Below are positions 49,472-55,253 of a DNA stretch of 64,000 nucleotides, piece by piece. The notes beneath the pieces were generated by a model. That model ran no database searches, was not told the DNA's origin, and saw nothing but the letters and a program-made list of their open reading frames with translations. The translations under genes were made by a program, and so were the position numbers. The first letter of the stretch is position 1; the number at the start of each line of letters is the position of its first letter. Location of the stretch: the sequence record MH675927.1; one strand, 5' to 3'. The DNA is from Escherichia phage vB_vPM_PD114.

Positions 49472-51205
49472 ATGAATATTTTTGCACCTTTTGCTACTGA
49501 TTGGTACAAACCTGGTCACAAGCAGATGTACAATCAAAATACAAAACTCATTTTCTCTAATTTAACTCCTCGTAATGATAAAAACTTTGCACACTATGCA
49601 GATCGTGAAGCACGTGGTGTGATTGTTTTAGGTATTCGTCGAGCAGTCACTGATGCTCTTGTAACTATGTGGGATAGCTTCTTTAAAATGTCTCGTAGTG
49701 CAGCAGTAAATAAATTTTATCGTATGTCTAAAAATGCATTAGGTGCTTCTGCTCCTTCTGCTGAATGTTGGGGAGAATTGCACGATTTAGGTTATCTTCC
49801 GCTGGAAGTTCGATCTCTGCCAGAAGGTGTTTTGTGTCCTATTGGTGTTCCTGTGTTTACTGTGCATAATACTTTAGAAAAATTCTTTTGGTTAACTAAC
49901 TATGTGGAAACACTGTTGTCAGATGAAACTTGGAAGACAATGACTAATGCCACAGCAGCTTTTCAGTATAAGCGTATCGCTATGGCATATGCGATGGCAA
50001 CGTGTGATAATATTGATCACGTTAACTTCCAGTGTCATGACTTTAGCCTACGTGGTTTAAGTAATATCGAAGATGGTTATAAGAGTGGTATCGCTCACTT
50101 GGCATCGTTCACAGGAACAGATAATATTCTGGCTATTGAAACTGTGCATGACTATTATGGTATTGATTATGATCAGTTTGTTGCAGGTTCTATTCCGGCA
50201 ACAGAACATTCAGTAGCAACGACTAACATTGGAGCTATTGTTGAAGATCTGAAGAAACATTTCCCACATCTTAAAGATGATGTAGATGGGCTTCGTTATG
50301 TAGCAGAAAAAGAGTTTCTTCGTCGTTATATCGAAGAAATTGTTCCAGAAGGTTTTTGTTCATATGTAGCAGACTCTTATGACTATTGGGCTGTATTGAC
50401 TCGCATTCTGGTAGAATTGAAAGATTCCATTATGTCACGAAATGGTCGTCTTGTTATTCGTCCAGATTCAGGAGATCCGGTTAAAGTTGTTGCAGGATAC
50501 AATGTTGAATCTTTTGATAACTATGAAGACCTCTTAAATAATGGTATTGCGACAGCCACTGAAGTAGTTCATTTGGCTGATGTTAATAAGTATTACAATG
50601 TTCTTCAGGATTGCAGTGTTGCTGACTGTATTGATGAAACTTATGAGATTCCTTATTGTGAAGCAGTAGGTTCTATTCAAATCCTTTGGGAAGTGTTTGG
50701 TGGTACTATCAACCGAAAAGGCTACAAGGTTCTTGATCAGCATATCGGTATGATTTATGGTGATTCTATTACTGTTGAACGAGAACACGAGATCTTACGC
50801 CGACTGAAGAAGAAAGGTTTTGCAGCTTCCAATATTGTATTTGGTGTTGGTAGTTATACTTATCAGTTCAATACACGAGATACTTTTGGTTTTGCTGTTA
50901 AAGCAACAGGTAGTATTATCGGTGAACACGAAATTTTGGTAAGTAAGGAGCCTAAAACTGATCCTGGTAAACGCTCTGCAAAAGGTTTTATTAAGGTTGT
51001 TAAGGATACCAATGGTAATCTGTCTCTTGTAGATAATCTTTCTTTTAAAGATATCCAGGATGAAGACAATGAGTTACAAGTTATCTTCAAGGATGGTAAG
51101 GTTATTACACCACAAGTAGAAGGCCGTGATGAAACATTCACTGATATCCGCAACCGTGTTGACGTAGAGGTTCTTCGTACTATGGGAACCATCCAGGTTG
51201 ACTAA
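49472..51205 (+). CDS. nicotinamide phosphoribosyltransferase family enzyme (Nampt homolog; Namat-type candidate)
   Basis: Nampt-family blocks HDFSLRG, LVIRPDSGDP, GMIYGDSIT, KTDPGKRSAKG; 577 aa with N-terminal extension. Confidence 0.8.
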   Translation: MNIFAPFATDWYKPGHKQMYNQNTKLIFSNLTPRNDKNFAHYADREARGVIVLGIRRAVTDALVTMWDSFFKMSRSAAVNKFYRMSKNALGASAPSAECWGELHDLGYLPLEVRSLPEGVLCPIGVPVFTVHNTLEKFFWLTNYVETLLSDETWKTMTNATAAFQYKRIAMAYAMATCDNIDHVNFQCHDFSLRGLSNIEDGYKSGIAHLASFTGTDNILAIETVHDYYGIDYDQFVAGSIPATEHSVATTNIGAIVEDLKKHFPHLKDDVDGLRYVAEKEFLRRYIEEIVPEGFCSYVADSYDYWAVLTRILVELKDSIMSRNGRLVIRPDSGDPVKVVAGYNVESFDNYEDLLNNGIATATEVVHLADVNKYYNVLQDCSVADCIDETYEIPYCEAVGSIQILWEVFGGTINRKGYKVLDQHIGMIYGDSITVEREHEILRRLKKKGFAASNIVFGVGSYTYQFNTRDTFGFAVKATGSIIGEHEILVSKEPKTDPGKRSAKGFIKVVKDTNGNLSLVDNLSFKDIQDEDNELQVIFKDGKVITPQVEGRDETFTDIRNRVDVEVLRTMGTIQVD

Positions 51206-51511: not shown

Positions 51512-51622
51512 ATGTCTACAGAAATTATTTTTGGCTTATCTGTTTTTATTGCTATTGTATCTTTTGTATGCGGTTATACACTAGGTTACAGATCAAGAAA
51601 AAATATTGTAAAAACTAGTTGA
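51512..51622 (+). CDS. small hydrophobic peptide (36 aa)
   Basis: SD taaggaaacag before ATG; hydrophobic. Confidence 0.35.
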   Translation: MSTEIIFGLSVFIAIVSFVCGYTLGYRSRKNIVKTS

Positions 51623-51648
51623 CAACATAGCTAGTTATTTGCTAAGAT
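51619..51648 (+). promoter_or_regulatory. sigma70-like promoter (TTGACA-N18-TAAGAT)
   Basis: upstream of 51679 gene. Confidence 0.45.
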
Positions 51649-51678: not shown

Positions 51679-51945
51679 ATGACAGAACGTACTTATGGTA
51701 AAGAATTGATTGAGAAGCACGTATTGATTGATAATAAAGGTGGAGCAATCTTTATTTTTGAACCTGAATCAGTTCTTACTGAAAACGAAAATGGTAGCGT
51801 TAGCCTTAAAACAGAAAGTTTGGTAATTGACTTCCTTGCTCTTCTGGATGAAATGGGGCTTCCGCACGAAGAAGAAGCAGCTATTGCTTTGATTACAGTT
51901 CTTCTGGAGAAACGCGAAGCTGGTGAAATGACCCAGTATGCTTAA
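51679..51945 (+). CDS. hypothetical protein
   Basis: track ORF; SD aaaggagaaaac. Confidence 0.55.
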   Translation: MTERTYGKELIEKHVLIDNKGGAIFIFEPESVLTENENGSVSLKTESLVIDFLALLDEMGLPHEEEAAIALITVLLEKREAGEMTQYA

Positions 51946-51952
51946 TATTCAA

Positions 51953-52028
51953 GGTTCCATAGCTCACTGACGAGAGCGCACACCTCATAAGTGTCGAGGG
52001 CAGGGATTGTAACCCTGGGGAACCACCA
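51953..52028 (+). tRNA. tRNA with CAT anticodon (Met or Ile-lysidine), atypical T-loop
   Basis: acceptor GGTTCC/GGAACC, D-arm GCTC-actgacga-GAGC, anticodon loop CTCATAA, 3' ACCA; T-loop ATTGTAA non-canonical, 7:66 mismatch. Confidence 0.45.
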
Positions 52029-52059
52029 TTTAAAAGGAGATGCTATGCATCTCCTATAT

Positions 52060-52145
52060 GCAAGTGTGGTGGAATTGGTGATACACATTGTGCTTAAAAC
52101 GCAACGCTTAAATGATTGAGGGTTCGAATCCCTCCACTTGCACCA
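52060..52145 (+). tRNA. tRNA-Leu (TAA)
   Basis: 7-bp acceptor GCAAGTG/CACTTGC, anticodon loop CTTAAAA, long variable arm, T-arm GAGGGTTCGAATCCCTC, encoded CCA. Confidence 0.7.
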
Positions 52146-52147
52146 AC

Positions 52148-52253
52148 GCCTAGTAGGGTATTTGGTAATTCCGAGGCCATCAAAGCCTGAAAAATATGTT
52201 AGACCGCTTTGTCTAACTAAATACGAAATATGGTTCGATTCCATAACTAGGCT
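52148..52253 (+). ncRNA. atypical 106-nt tRNA-like RNA (possible TCA anticodon hairpin, long extra arm)
   Basis: perfect 7-bp acceptor GCCTAGT/ACTAGGC and canonical T-arm TATGGTTCGATTCCATA but about 30 nt too long; 7-bp extra hairpin gttagac-cgcttt-gtctaac; fold not computed. Confidence 0.3.
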
Positions 52254-52285
52254 TCAATTTAAATAATAATTTTAGTAAAAATATC

Positions 52286-52314
52286 TTGACATTCACTTAG
52301 TTTTTTGTTATAGT
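52286..52314 (+). promoter_or_regulatory. sigma70-like promoter (TTGACA-N17-TATAGT)
   Basis: about 12 nt upstream of tRNA-like gene at 52326. Confidence 0.5.
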
Positions 52315-52325
52315 TACTGTGAAAA

Positions 52326-52407
52326 CGGGGTGTATCTCACCTGACTTCTAATCAGGCGTTAACCGAGTAATTGGAGTATGCAGGTTCGAATCCTGTCACC
52401 CCGACCA
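52326..52407 (+). ncRNA. atypical tRNA-like RNA with TCT (Arg-type) anticodon hairpin, no canonical D-arm
   Basis: 7/7 acceptor CGGGGTG/CACCCCG, T-arm GCAGGTTCGAATCCTGT, ACCA end; anticodon-like hairpin cctga-CTTCTAA-tcagg begins at position 15. Confidence 0.35.
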
Positions 52408-52425
52408 AAAAGTTTTAAAAACTAC

Positions 52426-52454
52426 TTGACAAGCAAGATAGTTTTATGTTAGAT
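52426..52454 (+). promoter_or_regulatory. sigma70-like promoter (TTGACA-N17-TTAGAT)
   Basis: upstream of tRNA-Ser at 52471. Confidence 0.5.
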
Positions 52455-52470
52455 TTAAAGTATGATAACG

Positions 52471-52560
52471 GGAAGGTAGGGCGCAGCGGTGCGCAACCAG
52501 GTTTGAACCCTGGCCCATTGTAGCGATACGGTGATGGTTCGACTCCATTATCTTCCTCCA
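52471..52560 (+). tRNA. tRNA-Ser (TGA)
   Basis: acceptor GGAAGGT/ATCTTCC (one GU), D-stem GCGC, anticodon stem CCAGG/CCTGG loop TTTGAAC, long variable arm, T-arm, CCA; anchored to ORF track at 52531. Confidence 0.65.
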
Positions 52561-52578
52561 AATTCAACTAGGAGCTTT

Positions 52579-52731
52579 ATGAATTATAAAACTATTGGAC
52601 AGGTTGTTACCGGAGTTAAGATTGTAGATAATAAAGTTGTTTATGAGTATTCTAATCTTCAACAATCTGAAGATGGTAAAAATATTCGTATGGTAAAAGC
52701 AGAACAAAAAGATTCCGGTTGTTTTGAATAA
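52579..52731 (+). CDS. hypothetical protein (50 aa)
   Basis: track ORF 52531..52731 overlaps tRNA-Ser; trimmed to ATG after taggagc. Confidence 0.45.
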   Translation: MNYKTIGQVVTGVKIVDNKVVYEYSNLQQSEDGKNIRMVKAEQKDSGCFE

Positions 52732-52739
52732 TTAAGAAC

Positions 52740-52825
52740 GGTAGATTGGTGAAATGGTAGCCACAACAGTTTGCTAAACTGTCGTCGGAAACGGCGTGTA
52801 GGTTCAAGTCCTACATCTACCGCCA
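52740..52825 (+). tRNA. tRNA-Ser (GCT)
   Basis: perfect acceptor GGTAGAT/ATCTACC, anticodon stem ACAGT/ACTGT loop TTGCTAA, long variable arm, T-arm GTAGGTTCAAGTCCTAC, CCA. Confidence 0.7.
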
Positions 52826-52845
52826 AATTTATGCGAGGAGGATGT

Positions 52846-53226
52846 ATGCCAAGCAATGATTATATGCGGGAATACATGAAAACTCGGTGGCAGAAGCGAA
52901 GAGCTTCCGCAATCCTCCAGCTTGGAGGTAAATGTGTTAATTGTGGGTCTGTAGATGACTTGGAATTTGATCATAAAGATTCAAGCGAGAAGAAGTTTTA
53001 TATTAGTCGAATGAGTTCATGCTCTGAGGCTAAATGGCAGGAAGAACTTGCCAAATGTCAACTTTTGTGCCATGACTGTCACATGAAGAAGACAAGAATA
53101 TCCCAAGACATGGGAAACAGAATTAGAACAACGGTGTGTGTTTGCGGGGCAGTATTTTATAGTACAAAGGCTTATGCTGGACATACACGGTGGTGTAAAG
53201 AGTATGCATCGTTAGCCAAGCGGTAA
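52846..53226 (+). CDS. HNH endonuclease (free-standing, inside tRNA cluster)
   Basis: CVNCGS..DHKD..CHDCH HNH motifs; track ORF 52771..53226 begins inside tRNA-Ser, trimmed to ATG after gaggagg; 3' end overlaps tRNA-Lys by about 21 nt. Confidence 0.65.
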   Translation: MPSNDYMREYMKTRWQKRRASAILQLGGKCVNCGSVDDLEFDHKDSSEKKFYISRMSSCSEAKWQEELAKCQLLCHDCHMKKTRISQDMGNRIRTTVCVCGAVFYSTKAYAGHTRWCKEYASLAKR

Positions 53227-53280
53227 GGCACTTGACTTTTAATCAAGGGAGCGAAGGTTCGAATCCTTCACGATGTACCA
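53206..53280 (+). tRNA. tRNA-Lys (TTT)
   Basis: acceptor GCATCGT/ACGATGT (G1-U72), anticodon stem CTTGA/TCAAG loop CTTTTAA, T-arm GAAGGTTCGAATCCTTC, CCA. Confidence 0.7.
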
Positions 53281-53285
53281 AACAC

Positions 53286-53372
53286 GTAGGTATCGCATAG
53301 CGGCAATTGCTGGAGACTGTAAATCTCCTGCCCTTCGGGGCTTCGTTGGTTCGAGTCCAACTACCTGCACCA
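53286..53372 (+). tRNA. tRNA-Tyr (GTA)
   Basis: acceptor GTAGGTA/TACCTGC, anticodon stem GGAGA/TCTCC loop CTGTAAA, long variable arm, T-arm, CCA. Confidence 0.7.
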
Positions 53373-53379
53373 AATTAAA

Positions 53380-53463
53380 GATGGATTGGCCTAGTGGTTG
53401 GGCGACGGACTGTTAATCCGTGAACGAAAGTTCTAGCAAGGTTCAAATCCTTGATCCATCGCC
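53380..53463 (+). tRNA. type II (long variable arm) tRNA with GTT anticodon (Asn-decoding)
   Basis: perfect acceptor GATGGAT/ATCCATC, anticodon stem ACGGA/TCCGT loop CTGTTAA, extra arm gaac-gaaa-gttc, T-arm CAAGGTTCAAATCCTTG, CCA. Confidence 0.5.
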
Positions 53464-53471
53464 AGAATTAT

Positions 53472-53548
53472 GGACTTGTAGAGTTAAGGTAAACCCTCAG
53501 TCGCAAAGAGGCTTCTGGAATTGCAGGTATCGAATCCTGCCGAGTCCA
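53472..53548 (+). ncRNA. degenerate tRNA-like element
   Basis: acceptor GGACTTG/CGAGTCC and 8-nt T-loop GCAGG-TATCGAAT-CCTGC but no canonical 5-7-5 anticodon arm; no CCA. Confidence 0.3.
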
Positions 53549-53554
53549 ATTATT

Positions 53555-53629
53555 GCTCCTATCGTATAACGGCTATTACGGTTGCCTTGTAAGCAACTTA
53601 TCAGGGTTCGAGTCCTTGTGGGAGCACCA
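53555..53629 (+). tRNA. tRNA-Thr (TGT)
   Basis: acceptor GCTCCTA/TGGGAGC, D-arm GTA..TAC, anticodon stem GTTGC/GCAAC loop CTTGTAA, T-arm, CCA. Confidence 0.7.
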
Positions 53630-53652
53630 ATTTTAACTCTAAAGGAGTGTAT

Positions 53653-53976
53653 GTGACAGAAAAAGAGTTAGAGAAATATTTTAATATCAATGTTTTCGAT
53701 GGTTTTGATGATATTGAAGATGTTGAAAGATATTATGAAGTAGAGTTAGATAAGGATAACATTGTAATTCTTTCTGCCACTTATGATTGTGCATATTATG
53801 AAGGTGAATCTCACGTTTATTTTTATGATATGAAAACATCTTTGTTTTATGAAGTACACGCATATCATTGTTCTTGTTATGGTTTAGAAGGTCAGTGGGA
53901 ACCTGAAGAAATAGGTGATTTGAGCTTTACGGTTGCATATCTAAACAGACGTGGTGCATCTACTATTTTAAAATAA
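53653..53976 (+). CDS. hypothetical protein
   Basis: track ORF 53647..53976; probable start at second GTG after aaaggag. Confidence 0.5.
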   Translation: MTEKELEKYFNINVFDGFDDIEDVERYYEVELDKDNIVILSATYDCAYYEGESHVYFYDMKTSLFYEVHAYHCSCYGLEGQWEPEEIGDLSFTVAYLNRRGASTILK

Positions 53977-53990
53977 ATATTAAAAGCCTC

Positions 53991-54020
53991 TTGACAAAGG
54001 GGCTAATAATATGTTAGAGT
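53991..54020 (+). promoter_or_regulatory. sigma70-like promoter (TTGACA-N17-TTAGAG)
   Basis: upstream of tRNA-Gly. Confidence 0.5.
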
Positions 54021-54031
54021 AATATTGTTAA

Positions 54032-54106
54032 GCGGGTATAGTGTTAATGGTAGCATATGAGGTTTCCACCCTCCAGGTGCAGGTTCAAGTCCTGTTACTC
54101 GCTCCA
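54032..54106 (+). tRNA. tRNA-Gly (TCC)
   Basis: acceptor GCGGGTA/TACTCGC (one GU), anticodon loop TTTCCAC, T-arm GCAGGTTCAAGTCCTGT, CCA. Confidence 0.7.
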
Positions 54107-54537
54107 AGATTATTTAAATGGAATCGCTAGAGAAAATTTCTCTTTTCGCTCATGGTTTTCTCCTTCAAACTCTAGCGGTTCTTTTTAAGTGATTTTTTAG
54201 TTTATTGGAGATTCACTGCCTTAGTGTGAGCTAAAATCGAGGAGCCATCGAACTGTCTGATTAATGATTTGCGAATCATTATAGTTTTAAGACCCCGGCA
54301 GTTTTATGGTGTACCTCTTGAATGTGAATGATGACGGGTTTATGGTTATCCTGGTCGTTAAATATCCAAAAACCTATGTTCCCCTTGAGGGCTTGCGCAG
54401 GCAATGCCAATAAGTCCTGCATTTTCATTTAAAAGAGAATTTATAATGGAAAAAGATGAACTTAAGTATGCTAAGCCTCTGGCTTCTGCTGCACGAAAAG
54501 CAGTTCGTCACTTTGTGGTAACACTGAAGTAATTTAT
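54107..54537 (+). other. structured noncoding spacer inside tRNA cluster (candidate small RNAs)
   Basis: 8-bp stem cgctagag/ctctagcg then U-tract (approx 54125-54190); hairpin taatgatt-tgcg-aatcatta (approx 54259-54278); gcagg..cctgc hairpin plus U-tract (approx 54393-54430); no convincing ORF. Confidence 0.35.
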
Positions 54538-54612
54538 TGGAGATTAGCCTAGTGGGAAGGCAACGGCCTTTGAAGTCGTGATGACTAGGTTCGATTCCTA
54601 GATCTCCAGCCA
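54538..54612 (+). tRNA. tRNA-Gln (TTG)
   Basis: perfect acceptor TGGAGAT/ATCTCCA, D-stem GCC/GGC, anticodon loop CTTTGAA, T-arm CTAGGTTCGATTCCTAG, CCA. Confidence 0.7.
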
Positions 54613-54619
54613 AGATTTA

Positions 54620-54695
54620 CAGTGCGTAGCGCAGTTGGTAGCGTGGGAGCCTTGGACGCTTCAGGTCGCAGGTTCGAGTCCTGCCGCACTGACCA
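54620..54695 (+). tRNA. tRNA-Pro (TGG)
   Basis: perfect acceptor CAGTGCG/CGCACTG, D-arm GCGC-AGTTGGTA-GCGT, anticodon loop CTTGGAC, T-arm GCAGGTTCGAGTCCTGC, CCA. Confidence 0.75.
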
Positions 54696-54700
54696 AATTT

Positions 54701-54775
54701 GCAGAGATAGCTGAGACGGATTAGTGCTACCCTGAAAAGGTAGAAAGGATGGATCGTTACCATCTCTCTGCACCA
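54701..54775 (+). tRNA. tRNA-Phe (GAA)
   Basis: perfect acceptor GCAGAGA/TCTCTGC, anticodon stem CTACC/GGTAG loop CTGAAAA, T-arm GATGGATCGTTACCATC, CCA. Confidence 0.7.
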
Positions 54776-54852
54776 AATAACACCATCCAAGGAGTAGACT
54801 TGGTTAACTGTCAATAGCACATTGAGGCTTCTTACAGTGGTGTACTTATTAT

Positions 54853-54937
54853 GGCTAAGTGGTGGAATGGTATACACGATACGCTTAGAACGTATTGCCC
54901 CAAGGGATTGTGAGTTCGAGTCTCACCTTAGCTACCA
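54853..54937 (+). tRNA. tRNA-Leu (TAG)
   Basis: acceptor GGCTAAG/CTTAGCT (G1-U72), anticodon stem ATACG/CGTAT loop CTTAGAA, long variable arm, T-arm GTGAGTTCGAGTCTCAC, CCA. Confidence 0.7.
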
Positions 54938-54952
54938 AATTATTACAGATTG

Positions 54953-55031
54953 CGCGGGATAGAGGAGTCTGGTCGTCCTCGCCAGTTTCATATGCTGGAG
55001 ATCATCGGTTCAAATCCGATTCCCGCCTCCA
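54953..55031 (+). tRNA. tRNA-Met (CAT), possible initiator type
   Basis: acceptor CGCGGGA/TCCCGCC with 1:72 mismatch, D-stem GAGG/CCTC, anticodon loop TTCATAT, T-arm ATCGGTTCAAATCCGAT, CCA. Confidence 0.55.
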
Positions 55032-55089
55032 CTAAATACCTCCCTTCTGGTGTAATGATTAAATTACATTGACACCTCAAGGAACTCAT

Positions 55090-55172
55090 AGCTGGGTAGA
55101 TTTAAAAGAGTATGGTACTCAATATGGCTCCAAACCATAGATCAAGGGGTTCGATTCCTCACCTTGCTGCCA
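55090..55172 (+). ncRNA. tRNA-Trp-like (CCA anticodon) with irregular 5' region
   Basis: anticodon arm TATGG-CTCCAAA-CCATA, D-like arm GAG-TATGGTA-CTC, T-loop TTCGATT, 3' CCTTGCT-G-CCA; only 6/7 acceptor candidate, separated from D-arm by about 11 nt. Confidence 0.35.
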
Positions 55173-55177
55173 ATTAT

Positions 55178-55253
55178 TGTGGTATCGTACAGATGGTTAG
55201 TACACTCGACCGATAATCGAGAAACAACGGTTCGACTCCGTTTACCACGACCA
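55178..55253 (+). tRNA. tRNA-Ile (GAT)
   Basis: 76 nt; acceptor TGTGGTA/TACCACG (U1-G72), D-stem GTAC, anticodon stem CTCGA/TCGAG loop CCGATAA, T-arm AACGGTTCGACTCCGTT, CCA. Confidence 0.6.

Follow-up and report, generated by a model that had tools for sequence, protein, structure and literature searches.

Species 1 and 2 of phage T4 (rnaC and rnaD) are matured together with tRNAs and are dispensable, and we know of no function for either. Irregular tRNAs are of interest to genetic-code engineering as well. The allo-tRNAs have a long D stem and tetraloop like those of tRNA-Sec, a long variable arm, G73 or U73 and diverse anticodons (Mukai et al. 2017, PMC5389517). They are defined by the 8/4 or 9/3 makeup of their 12-bp acceptor/T branch, their anticodons include UAU and stop anticodons, and some members are phage-borne (PMC5389517). 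Allo-tRNAs and the selC* tRNA-Cys(UCA) work in E. coli translation, selC* as an opal suppressor; the irregular tRNA polycistrons and allo-tRNAs also include five-stem junction variants, and some members are translation-inactive and suspected to be regulatory (PMC5389517). tRNA-Other of Bacillus cereus, cited in that paper, is a tRNA-like small RNA that is charged and is not known to decode (PMC5389517). Phage tRNA genes, for their part, are now viewed as weapons against host tRNA-cleaving defences. They counter PARIS, Retron-Eco7 and Septu, systems that cut in the anticodon stem or the variable loop, and the altered anticodon stem-loop or variable loop of the counter-defence tRNAs matters against these host nucleases (PMC11464382, PMC13096335). 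Cutting in the D loop has been suggested for Type I-A retrons (PMC12916289).

The window analysed here, a stretch of 64,000 nucleotides, holds an element that has to be placed among these systems. From the comparison of related sequences we conclude with high confidence that 52148-52253 is the gene for an irregular, oversized tRNA-shaped RNA of a conserved family. The 721 bases around it are 100% identical to Escherichia phage vB_vPM_PD06 (Justusliebigvirus, Stephanstirmvirinae, phi92-like), and we use PD06 type for the version of the element found in the window and its Justusliebigvirus relatives. It is hosted by a tRNA cluster (15 tRNAs by ARAGORN at 51953-55253, 14 by Rfam). The locus reads as follows.

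51619-51648, + strand: putative promoter TTGACA-18-TAAGAT, 10 of 12 matches in a consensus scan
52060-52145, + strand: tRNA-Leu(UAA), the upstream neighbour, with an encoded CCA end (ARAGORN; 57.1 bits with the Rfam tRNA model)
52146-52147, + strand: 2-nt spacer AC between tRNA-Leu(UAA) and the element, by direct reading
52148-52154, + strand: 5' arm of the acceptor stem, GCCTAGT, 7 perfect pairs with 52246-52252
52155-52156, + strand: linker A8 G9, with A8 invariant in the family alignment
52157-52172, + strand: D arm of the tRNA-Sec/allo-tRNA type, GGTATT-TGGT-AATTCC, 3 of 6 pairs changed on both sides
52173, + strand: single G joining the D arm and the anticodon-like arm, an invariant column, opposite G 52189
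52174-52188, + strand: anticodon-like arm AGGC-CATCAAA-GCCT, 4-bp stem and 7-nt loop, pairs 27:43 and 30:40 covarying
52189-52197, + strand: 5' single-stranded flank of the variable region, GAAAAATAT, with G(A/U)AAA kept in all lineages
52198-52217, + strand: variable-region hairpin GTTAGAC-CGCTTT-GTCTAAC, perfect 7 bp and 6-nt loop, in the minimum-energy fold
52218-52228, + strand: 3' single-stranded flank of the variable region, TAAATACGAAA, from the comparison of lineages
52229-52245, + strand: T arm TATGG-TTCGATT-CCATA, 5-bp stem and canonical loop, loop-closing G:C invariant
52246-52252, + strand: 3' arm of the acceptor stem, ACTAGGC, by alignment and direct reading
52253-52256, + strand: discriminator U73, then TCA, where most homologs encode CCA
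52286-52314: strong promoter-like site downstream of the element, for the next gene

With the T at 52253 as the discriminator, the body measures 105 nt plus one. The original prediction had described a 7-bp acceptor of perfect pairs (GCCTAGT/ACTAGGC), a canonical T arm, a 4-bp stem whose CATCAAA loop centres on TCA with A in place of U33, and a perfect 7-bp extra hairpin, and direct reading bears all of these out. It had also described a D-like stem of six pairs with a 4-nt loop. The arm is there, but the D stem of the window copy has 5 standard pairs and one U.U mismatch around its tetraloop TGGT; this UGGU is matched within the Rfam alignment of tRNA-Sec. The anticodon-like loop is numbered C32 A33 U34 C35 A36 A37 A38, and the variable region is 39 nt long (35-40 nt in the family).

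Elongator tRNAs have U8, a D stem of 3-4 bp with a loop of 7-11 nt, and a variable region of 4-5 or about 10-24 nt. By this yardstick the element is canonical in its 7-bp acceptor, 5-bp T stem, UUCRANY T loop, G53:C61 pair and G19:C56 elbow, and non-canonical in its A8, its D stem of 6 positions with a 4-nt loop and its 39-nt variable region. The anticodon arm departs as well: where a 5-bp stem and U33 are expected, there are 4 bp plus a G.G opposition, and A33 in the 7-nt loop. Neither ARAGORN at default settings nor Rfam at its gathering thresholds calls a gene at 52148-52253, and the Rfam tRNA model (RF00005, gathering score 29 bits) gives no match there even at E up to 10. The sole Rfam family that the element matches is tRNA-Sec (RF01852), at 29.4 bits in a short search window against a gathering score of 47; among the homologs Hena1 and UTK0002 reach 39 bits and Seunavirus 27.5 bits. 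The tmRNA model gives just 7.1 bits over 11 nt, and the YrlA model does not match the element.

The family emerges when homologs are collected. BLAST finds 30 Justusliebigvirus records with the element at at least 96.8% identity and, at about 70% identity, the Erwinia phages Hena1 and pEp_SNUABM_01, 55 and 56 and Salmonella phage UTK0002 (Schitoviridae). Hena1 and pEp_SNUABM_01/55/56 are Henunavirus where their records carry a classification. With UTK0002 as the query the family widens to 222 records, adding Mydovirus (Ro1, VIK251, Mydo), Seunavirus (EspYZU15, LNA4), Salmonella phage 41, Avunavirus (19-1-2) and Vequintavirus (HdK5, AlexBoehm and many others). Further variants come from pattern scans of IMG/VR and metagenomes; the loose IMG/VR scans gave mostly chance matches, of which the family model retained only L007, L010 and L188. 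A scan for the 3' motif in one genome per bacterial species gave no confirmed match, its Sporosarcina match not being confirmed by the family model, so for the motif searched the family is apparently phage-only. In all, homologs of 96-108 nt are found in five Vequintavirinae genera, Justusliebigvirus, one N4-like phage and metagenomic contigs, always within a tRNA cluster. Between the UTK0002 copy and the one in Erwinia phage pEp_SNUABM_01 identity is 88.5%, so the element moves on its own between phage families, and it has reached one N4-like phage by transfer.

GenBank labels these members in five ways: tRNA-sup(tca) or suppressor, tRNA-Lys, tRNA-OTHER or ???(atcc), hypothetical protein, or nothing at all. 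We found no description of the family in the literature and no entry for it in Rfam, so it is a conserved and apparently undescribed family of the tRNA clusters of rV5-like and phi92-like phages. Its plan begins with a 7-bp acceptor, A8 R9, a 6-bp D stem with a tetraloop and a single G. Then come a stem of 4-5 bp with a loop of 5-7 nt, a G with an A-rich run (GAAAA in the family, GUAAAA in two members) and a lineage-specific hairpin, and the plan closes with AUACAUA, a 5-bp T stem, a canonical T loop, the discriminator and usually CCA; U73 and an encoded CCA are found in most members. The hairpin is present in every homolog with unrelated sequence, and within the genus it varies in its loop only. 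Several conserved motifs are foreign to ordinary tRNAs: A8, where those have U8, GAAAA, AUACAUA and the hairpin loop GAAYUAACAGUA, whose stem covaries. The AUACAUA 7-mer lies immediately 5' of the T stem and is invariant in the other lineages, while the PD06 type deviates (AUACGAAA).

The fold of the window copy alone is only moderately better than that of shuffles. Unconstrained, it reaches -28.8 kcal/mol (z = -2.7), with 3 of 200 shuffles equally good, and forms the acceptor, T arm and extra hairpin without the D stem; the family cloverleaf lies 0.6 kcal/mol above this minimum. The excess over chance comes from comparing homologs, not from the single window sequence. In an alignment of 18 distinct homologs standard pairing holds in 97.8% of cells, against 30-49% when the partners are slid, and 11 of 23 pairs have changed on both sides. 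None of 500 shuffles matches the observed pairing or covariation score. Both sides have changed at acceptor pairs 3:70, 4:69 and 5:68 and at T-stem pair 51:63, and pair 49:65, by direct reading, is U:A in the window copy and G:C in others. RNAalifold independently recovers identical acceptor, D, anticodon-like and T stems, and of 29 homologs folded, 26 have the complete five-helix cloverleaf as their unconstrained minimum-energy fold. In the D loop, the second G (G19) is the partner of C56 in the T loop. Of 30 distinct homologs 8 have U:A here instead: every one of the 8 with the D loop UGUC has it, and not one of the 22 with UGGY. This co-change is strong evidence of an elbow of the tRNA type.

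The claim that this is a tRNA-like gene is thus strongly supported by covariation in all four core stems and in the tertiary 19:56 pair. The original prediction had named, among its grounds for refutation, that covariance models might give no tRNA-like score. This is true at curated thresholds, and is overruled by the comparative evidence. A covariance model of the family, built from the 18 distinct sequences, has one strong match in the 64-kb window, 52148-52256 at 99.5 bits. It gives 83-115 bits to members outside the training set and at most 31 bits to ordinary tRNAs, the closest paralog being the phages' own tRNA-Ser(UGA) at 23-28 bits.

The same comparisons dispose of the view that there is no RNA gene here, and that what was seen are chance inverted repeats, a small protein gene or a terminator of the minus strand. 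Several GenBank records do annotate a CDS across the element, the 42-codon ORF 52138-52266 being a 'hypothetical protein' in some of them, and in a terminator scan the hairpin is picked out on the minus strand, where 52217-52198 is followed by ATATTTTTC. The homologs keep base pairing and not reading frame. Their indels are not multiples of three (lengths of 96 and 104-107 nt), and these together with the paired substitutions reject both ORF 52138-52266 and the minus-strand ORF 51942-52244 as coding. The hairpin is only 3-4 bp in many homologs, too weak to terminate, and the neighbouring genes are all on the + strand. We consider a non-RNA explanation very nearly negligible; in practice the covariation already refutes it.

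All genes around the element are on the + strand, and its homologs have the same placement, 2-5 nt past the CCA of the preceding tRNA. The promoter-like site at 51619-51648 is the closest one upstream, and the terminator scan found no terminator-like site on the + strand between it and the element. It would drive a single transcript of ORF 51679-51945, a tRNA-Met-like gene, tRNA-Leu and the element, which sits where co-transcription and processing with tRNAs would occur. The neighbouring gene at 52471-52560 is a tRNA-Ser(UGA) that folds as an 8/4 allo-tRNA-Ser. A Pfam scan of nine flanking ORFs identified only a NAPRTase-family enzyme and gave no candidate for a partner.

The element is, by its distribution, non-essential in Justusliebigvirus. 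Among the 55 records of the genus that match the region at 97% identity or better, 30 keep it and 25 lack it. Four of these have the KKE7M-type deletion, with about 99 nt gone between the acceptor arms; the other 21, phi92 included, have the phi92-type deletion of about 124 nt, which leaves the relic ACCTA of the 5' arm. Since the deletions are two different ones, the element is ancestral and was lost twice. The PD06 type is also the least well-formed member of the family: its D stem has the U.U, CCA is missing and the AUACAUA motif is altered. It may therefore be on the way to losing its function.

It could then be argued that the PD06-type copy is a decaying relic of a family that functions elsewhere. 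The D stem carries the U.U mismatch and is missing from the minimum-energy fold, TCA, CCC or TTC stands where CCA is expected (the trailers among Justusliebigvirus copies are TTCA, TCCC or TTTC, and no encoded CCA occurs in the genus), the otherwise invariant AUACAUA has been altered, the tRNA-Sec score is the lowest of the UCA-type members tested (29.4 against 39 bits), and two independent deletions are common in the genus, in phi92 itself among others. Against this, the acceptor, D and T stems have taken up a divergence of about 30% from the Erwinia-phage copies through paired changes, so for most of the branch selection was acting on the structure. In the genus, intact copies vary only at loop position 32, at two positions of the hairpin loop and in the 3' trailer, so that the 106 nt vary at three loop positions only, whereas the 48-nt spacer 3' of the element has several substitutions and indels and is far more variable. 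All 7 bp of the extra hairpin are perfect, and the core of the loop is intact. We judge decay to be unlikely.

The argument about function turns on the anticodon-like loop, which is constant inside lineages and different across them. Its forms, with the discriminator, are these.

[C/U/A]-AUCAA-[A/G], 7 nt, U73: Justusliebigvirus, Henunavirus, UTK0002 and five metagenomic variants
C-[A/C/U]-[U/G]-CCA, 6 nt and C:G-closed, U73: Seunavirus, Mydovirus and several contigs
GUGAUA, 6 nt, U73: contig L115
UUUUUAA, A73: Vequintavirus
UUUAUAA, U73 or C73: Avunavirus

Lineage-specific loops on covarying stems argue that the loop sequence is under selection. Since the loop differs by lineage, UGA decoding cannot be the function common to the family, and neither is the decoding of any one given codon. 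Some members, the rV5 type foremost, could nevertheless be real tRNAs. The rV5 and Avunavirus types have canonical 7-nt loops and score above the Rfam tRNA threshold (35.5 and 33.1 bits), and with a canonical loop, no second tRNA-Lys in the loci examined and an A73 that fits LysRS identity, the rV5 type suggests that the family may include true decoders. Phages with the 6-nt UCC-like loop also have a canonical tRNA-Gly(UCC).

Other ways of reading the loop were tried and dropped. When ARAGORN was run with introns allowed and thresholds lowered, its calls on the homologs were Asn(gtt), Ile(aat), Gln(ttg), Pro(ggg), Leu(caa) and Trp(cca), which are inconsistent with one another and so artefacts, and its ???(atcc) call on the rV5 type was discarded with them. 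Shifting the loop by one position, with U as U33 and CAA or CCA as the anticodon, fails because contig L100 has G there. A kissing interaction in PD06 of the CAUCAAAG loop with CUUUG of the hairpin loop is not conserved in the homologs.

We lean tentatively, at a little short of an even chance, toward an accessory tRNA mimic or irregular tRNA that is processed like a tRNA. The element would be co-transcribed with the upstream tRNA-Met-like gene and tRNA-Leu, cut by RNase P at G52148 and trimmed at its 3' end, and the host CCA-adding enzyme would complete that end since the phage encodes TCA and not CCA. The product would be a non-essential mimic whose acceptor and elbow, with the flanks of the extra arm, engage a partner that binds tRNA, and whose lineage-specific loop, here A33-U34-C35-A36-A37, is presented for specificity. 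The likeliest arena would be the contest between phages and host tRNA-cleaving defences, with the RNA as a decoy, a pseudo-substrate or a nuclease-proof chassis; it may also be aminoacylated. It does not appear to be a general decoder, and its role in PD06 must be conditional because close relatives live without it. Besides the canonical loops of the rV5 and Avunavirus types and the imperfect build of the PD06 type, two further points count against such a mimic. A decoy that can be cleaved titrates a catalytic nuclease poorly, and the pattern in UCA-type members, where 33-37 are invariant and 32 and 38 vary, is also what a decoding constraint would be expected to leave.

That last point belongs to the main rival of the mimic, namely that the element is a true but weak opal-suppressor tRNA, charged, delivered by EF-Tu and reading UGA with U34-C35-A36. 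The candidates for charging would be Gly, Cys and Ser, as suggested by U73, G1:C72, C2:G71, C35 and the long extra arm. The loop has 7 nt with UCA at its center followed by A36-A37-A38, and AUCAA is invariant in Justusliebigvirus, Henunavirus, the N4-like phage and the five metagenomic variants even as positions 32 and 38 and the stems change. The path from glyT to a UGA suppressor is classically UCC to UCA. The best Rfam match is tRNA-Sec with UCAAA aligned, two homolog records in GenBank carry the opal-suppressor label tRNA-sup(tca), and two UCA-type contigs have an additional tRNA with a CUA anticodon. Allo-tRNAs and selC* tRNA-Cys(UCA) share the D-arm type, often have U73, and are functional in E. 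coli (PMC5389517).

The structure is less friendly to decoding. A33 replaces a nearly universal U33, the anticodon-like stem has just 4 bp and a G.G opposition, the variable region runs to 39 nt and CCA is unencoded in the genus. Given the 6-nt loops of sister lineages, what the family conserves is not decoding, and 25 of 55 close relatives lack the element. ARAGORN makes no default call, and its intron mode gives a different anticodon for each homolog. The original prediction had asked for a count of in-frame TGA codons in phage genes, and the count shows an ordinary stop and no recoding: the 74 ORFs of at least 100 codons in the window stop at TAA 56 times, at TGA 14 times (19%) and at TAG 4 times, and none needs read-through. 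A search of the window turned up neither in-frame TGA candidates nor TGA-split genes nor any sign of stop-codon recoding; TGA separates 2 of the 22 in-frame ORF pairs divided by one stop, both small, and when it is taken as sense the longest ORFs gain a few codons only. An efficient opal suppressor is unlikely. Read-through extensions are shorter after TGA (median 2.5 codons) than after TAA (7.5), which speaks weakly for suppression (one-sided p = 0.036, uncorrected, n = 14). On balance we think even a weak suppressor unlikely, though it is the competitor we take most seriously.

A further proposal joins the two, and we regard it as a long shot. The family would consist of hardened irregular tRNAs that are re-tooled in each lineage, and the PD06/Henunavirus version would be a natural UGA-reading tRNA with A33, charged through U73 and the acceptor stem. 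The compact D arm and a giant, swappable variable arm would evade or bait nucleases that cut D, variable or anticodon loops, and the chassis would carry Lys UUU in rV5-like phages, Ile UAU in Avunavirus, a Gly-like UCC elsewhere and UCA here. If this were true, a lytic phage with the standard code would have a working opal suppressor on a type of cloverleaf not yet described.

It is important to realize that a conserved RNA family backed by covariation has been overlooked by the standard finders and by Rfam thresholds. Because natural deletion strains (phi92 and KKE7M) and loop variants already exist, its function is directly testable. Should UGA decoding or the blocking of a defence nuclease prove true, this would be a new class of phage counter-measure; should neither, the annotation of at least 200 phage genomes is still corrected.

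How, then, does the preferred reading, an accessory tRNA mimic or irregular tRNA, sit with the systems described at the outset? Bacterial tRNA-Sec, to which the original prediction had loosely likened the element, shares several features with it: a D stem of 6 bp whose 4-nt loop reads UGGU, a 7-nt loop containing UCAAA, an extra arm and a GGUUCGAUUCC T arm. Being the sole Rfam match, with that D arm and UCAAA, the likeness holds; it ends at the acceptor branch, the discriminator and position 33. The branch of tRNA-Sec has 13 bp (8/5) and that of the element 12 bp (7/5), an assignment that follows because A8 cannot pair with 65 and 49:65 belongs to the T stem. tRNA-Sec has G73 and U33 where the element has U73 and A33, and its extra hairpin emerges directly, while that of the element stands between single strands of 9 nt and 11 nt. 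Nor are UGA or Sec a constant of the family, given orthologs with UUU, UAU or UCC-like loops.

Allo-tRNAs and selC* share with the element the D-arm type, a long extra arm, U73 in many cases and the diversity of anticodons. They differ in their 8/4 or 9/3 branch, the element family being 7/5 with a 49:65 pair that differs on both sides between lineages. At 35-40 nt, and with unpaired flanks that are conserved, the variable region of the element family far exceeds theirs, and several lineages of the family have 6-nt loops. The counter-defence tRNAs (T5 tRNA-Lys against PARIS; T5 and T6 tRNA-Tyr against Retron-Eco7 and Septu) are, like the element, genes of phage tRNA clusters, and the rV5-type element has A73 and a UUUUUAA loop like that of a tRNA-Lys. 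Those tRNAs are of normal size and decode, whereas the body of the element is irregular and its PD06 loop is unlike that of any essential host tRNA.

The T4 species 1 and 2 are small RNAs in a phage tRNA cluster adjoining a tRNA gene, as is the element, and the suggestion that it might be a stable RNA of that kind survives as a fair functional analogy. Homology does not: at 119 and 139 nt, rnaC and rnaD have no cloverleaf matching the element, and on the T4 tRNA region with filters off the family model gives 8.8 bits (E = 0.29) over rnaC and nothing over rnaD. tRNA-Other is bacterial and is not known to be related to the element in sequence. The overall build is, as the comparative alignment draws it, a D arm of the tRNA-Sec type on an ordinary 7/5 acceptor branch, together with a variable region roughly double any known one in size. 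We believe the family is best placed with the irregular tRNA-Sec-like tRNAs and the small RNAs of phage tRNA clusters, as a variant of them.

The element (52148-52252) has been precisely deleted in 25 of the 55 close relatives, and two independent deletions can be recognized, one seen in the comparison with phi92 and the other in that with KKE7M. One of the deletion junctions falls between the two acceptor arms of the element, both of which contain CTAG.

Two genes that lie downstream are themselves unusual.

52286-52314, promoter-like site ahead of the D-armless gene, the top match of the region (TTGACA-17-TATAGT)
52326-52404, +, tRNA-like gene without a D arm (Rfam tRNA, 40 bits)
52426-52455, promoter-like site of the tRNA-Ser(UGA) gene, its own
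52471-52560, +, tRNA-Ser(UGA) (ARAGORN)

In the D-armless gene 4 nt stand in for the D arm, the variable arm is long, and the anticodon loop is CUUCUAA (UCU, Arg-type). ARAGORN makes no call at this position, and the counterparts in other records are labelled tRNA-Undet or tRNA-OTHER. The tRNA-Ser(UGA) is, on its modelled fold, an allo-tRNA-Ser, given an acceptor/T branch of 8/4, a 5-bp D stem with the tetraloop GCGG, and a 7-bp variable arm. Allo-tRNA-Ser of this kind has been reported from phages (Mukai et al., PMC5389517). The nearest Rfam family is tRNA-Sec (35.3 bits), not tRNA. The phi92 record flags the counterpart of this gene as a pseudogene.

Three further sequences in the window are irregular, and two of them are uncalled and lie between annotated tRNAs.

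51953-52028, +, tRNA-Met(CAU) (ARAGORN)
53471-53550, +, uncalled tRNA-like sequence
55091-55171, +, uncalled tRNA-like sequence

The tRNA-Met(CAU) has an unusual T loop, AUUGUAA, and gives no match to Rfam tRNA; the phi92 record calls its counterpart a "hypothetical tRNA". In the sequence at 53471-53550 an 8-bp acceptor helix is accompanied by a hairpin that resembles a T arm, GCAGG-UAUCGAAU-CCUGC (z = -2.1). The one at 55091-55171 has a T arm, a poor acceptor stem and the loop CUCCAAA (Trp-like); it scores 16.9 bits with the family model and folds no better than its shuffles.

Protein genes also adjoin or interrupt the cluster.

49472-51205, +, NAPRTase-family enzyme, 577 aa (Pfam PF04095, E = 6e-38)
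52846-53226, +, ORF between tRNA genes with Cys-rich motifs

The first lies immediately 5' of the cluster, and related records annotate its counterpart as nicotinamide or nicotinate phosphoribosyltransferase. The second, from Cys-rich motifs judged by eye, looks like a possible HNH homing endonuclease; Pfam gives no match for it at E up to 0.01. In the PATM record it is a neighbouring ORF that carries the annotation HNH endonuclease.

Copies of the element in other phages also have unusual neighbours.

L124:3313-3387, L113:4166-4240, L101:5383-5457, tRNA directly 5' of the element copy in Mydovirus-like contigs
L133:2791-2865, L118:7862-7934, tRNA with a CUA (amber) anticodon, "tRNA-Pyl" per ARAGORN

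For the Mydovirus-like tRNA ARAGORN reports an anticodon of 2 bases, "(ga)", a sign that this gene too has an anticodon loop of 6 nt. GenBank labels this upstream tRNA tRNA-Ser in Mydovirus-like phages. On the metagenomic contigs L133 and L118 the CUA tRNA shares one cluster with a UCA-type element, and ORF lengths at these two loci give no hint that stop codons are recoded.

The remaining comparison is with the T4 tRNA region.

L107:1909-2047, -, T4 rnaC (species 1 RNA)

The likeness of rnaC to the element is not statistically significant (E = 0.29). In layout rnaC recalls the element's 3' half, AAAAAUAU being followed by a hairpin of 6-7 bp whose loop is 6 nt, by a short A-rich linker and by a hairpin that resembles a T arm.
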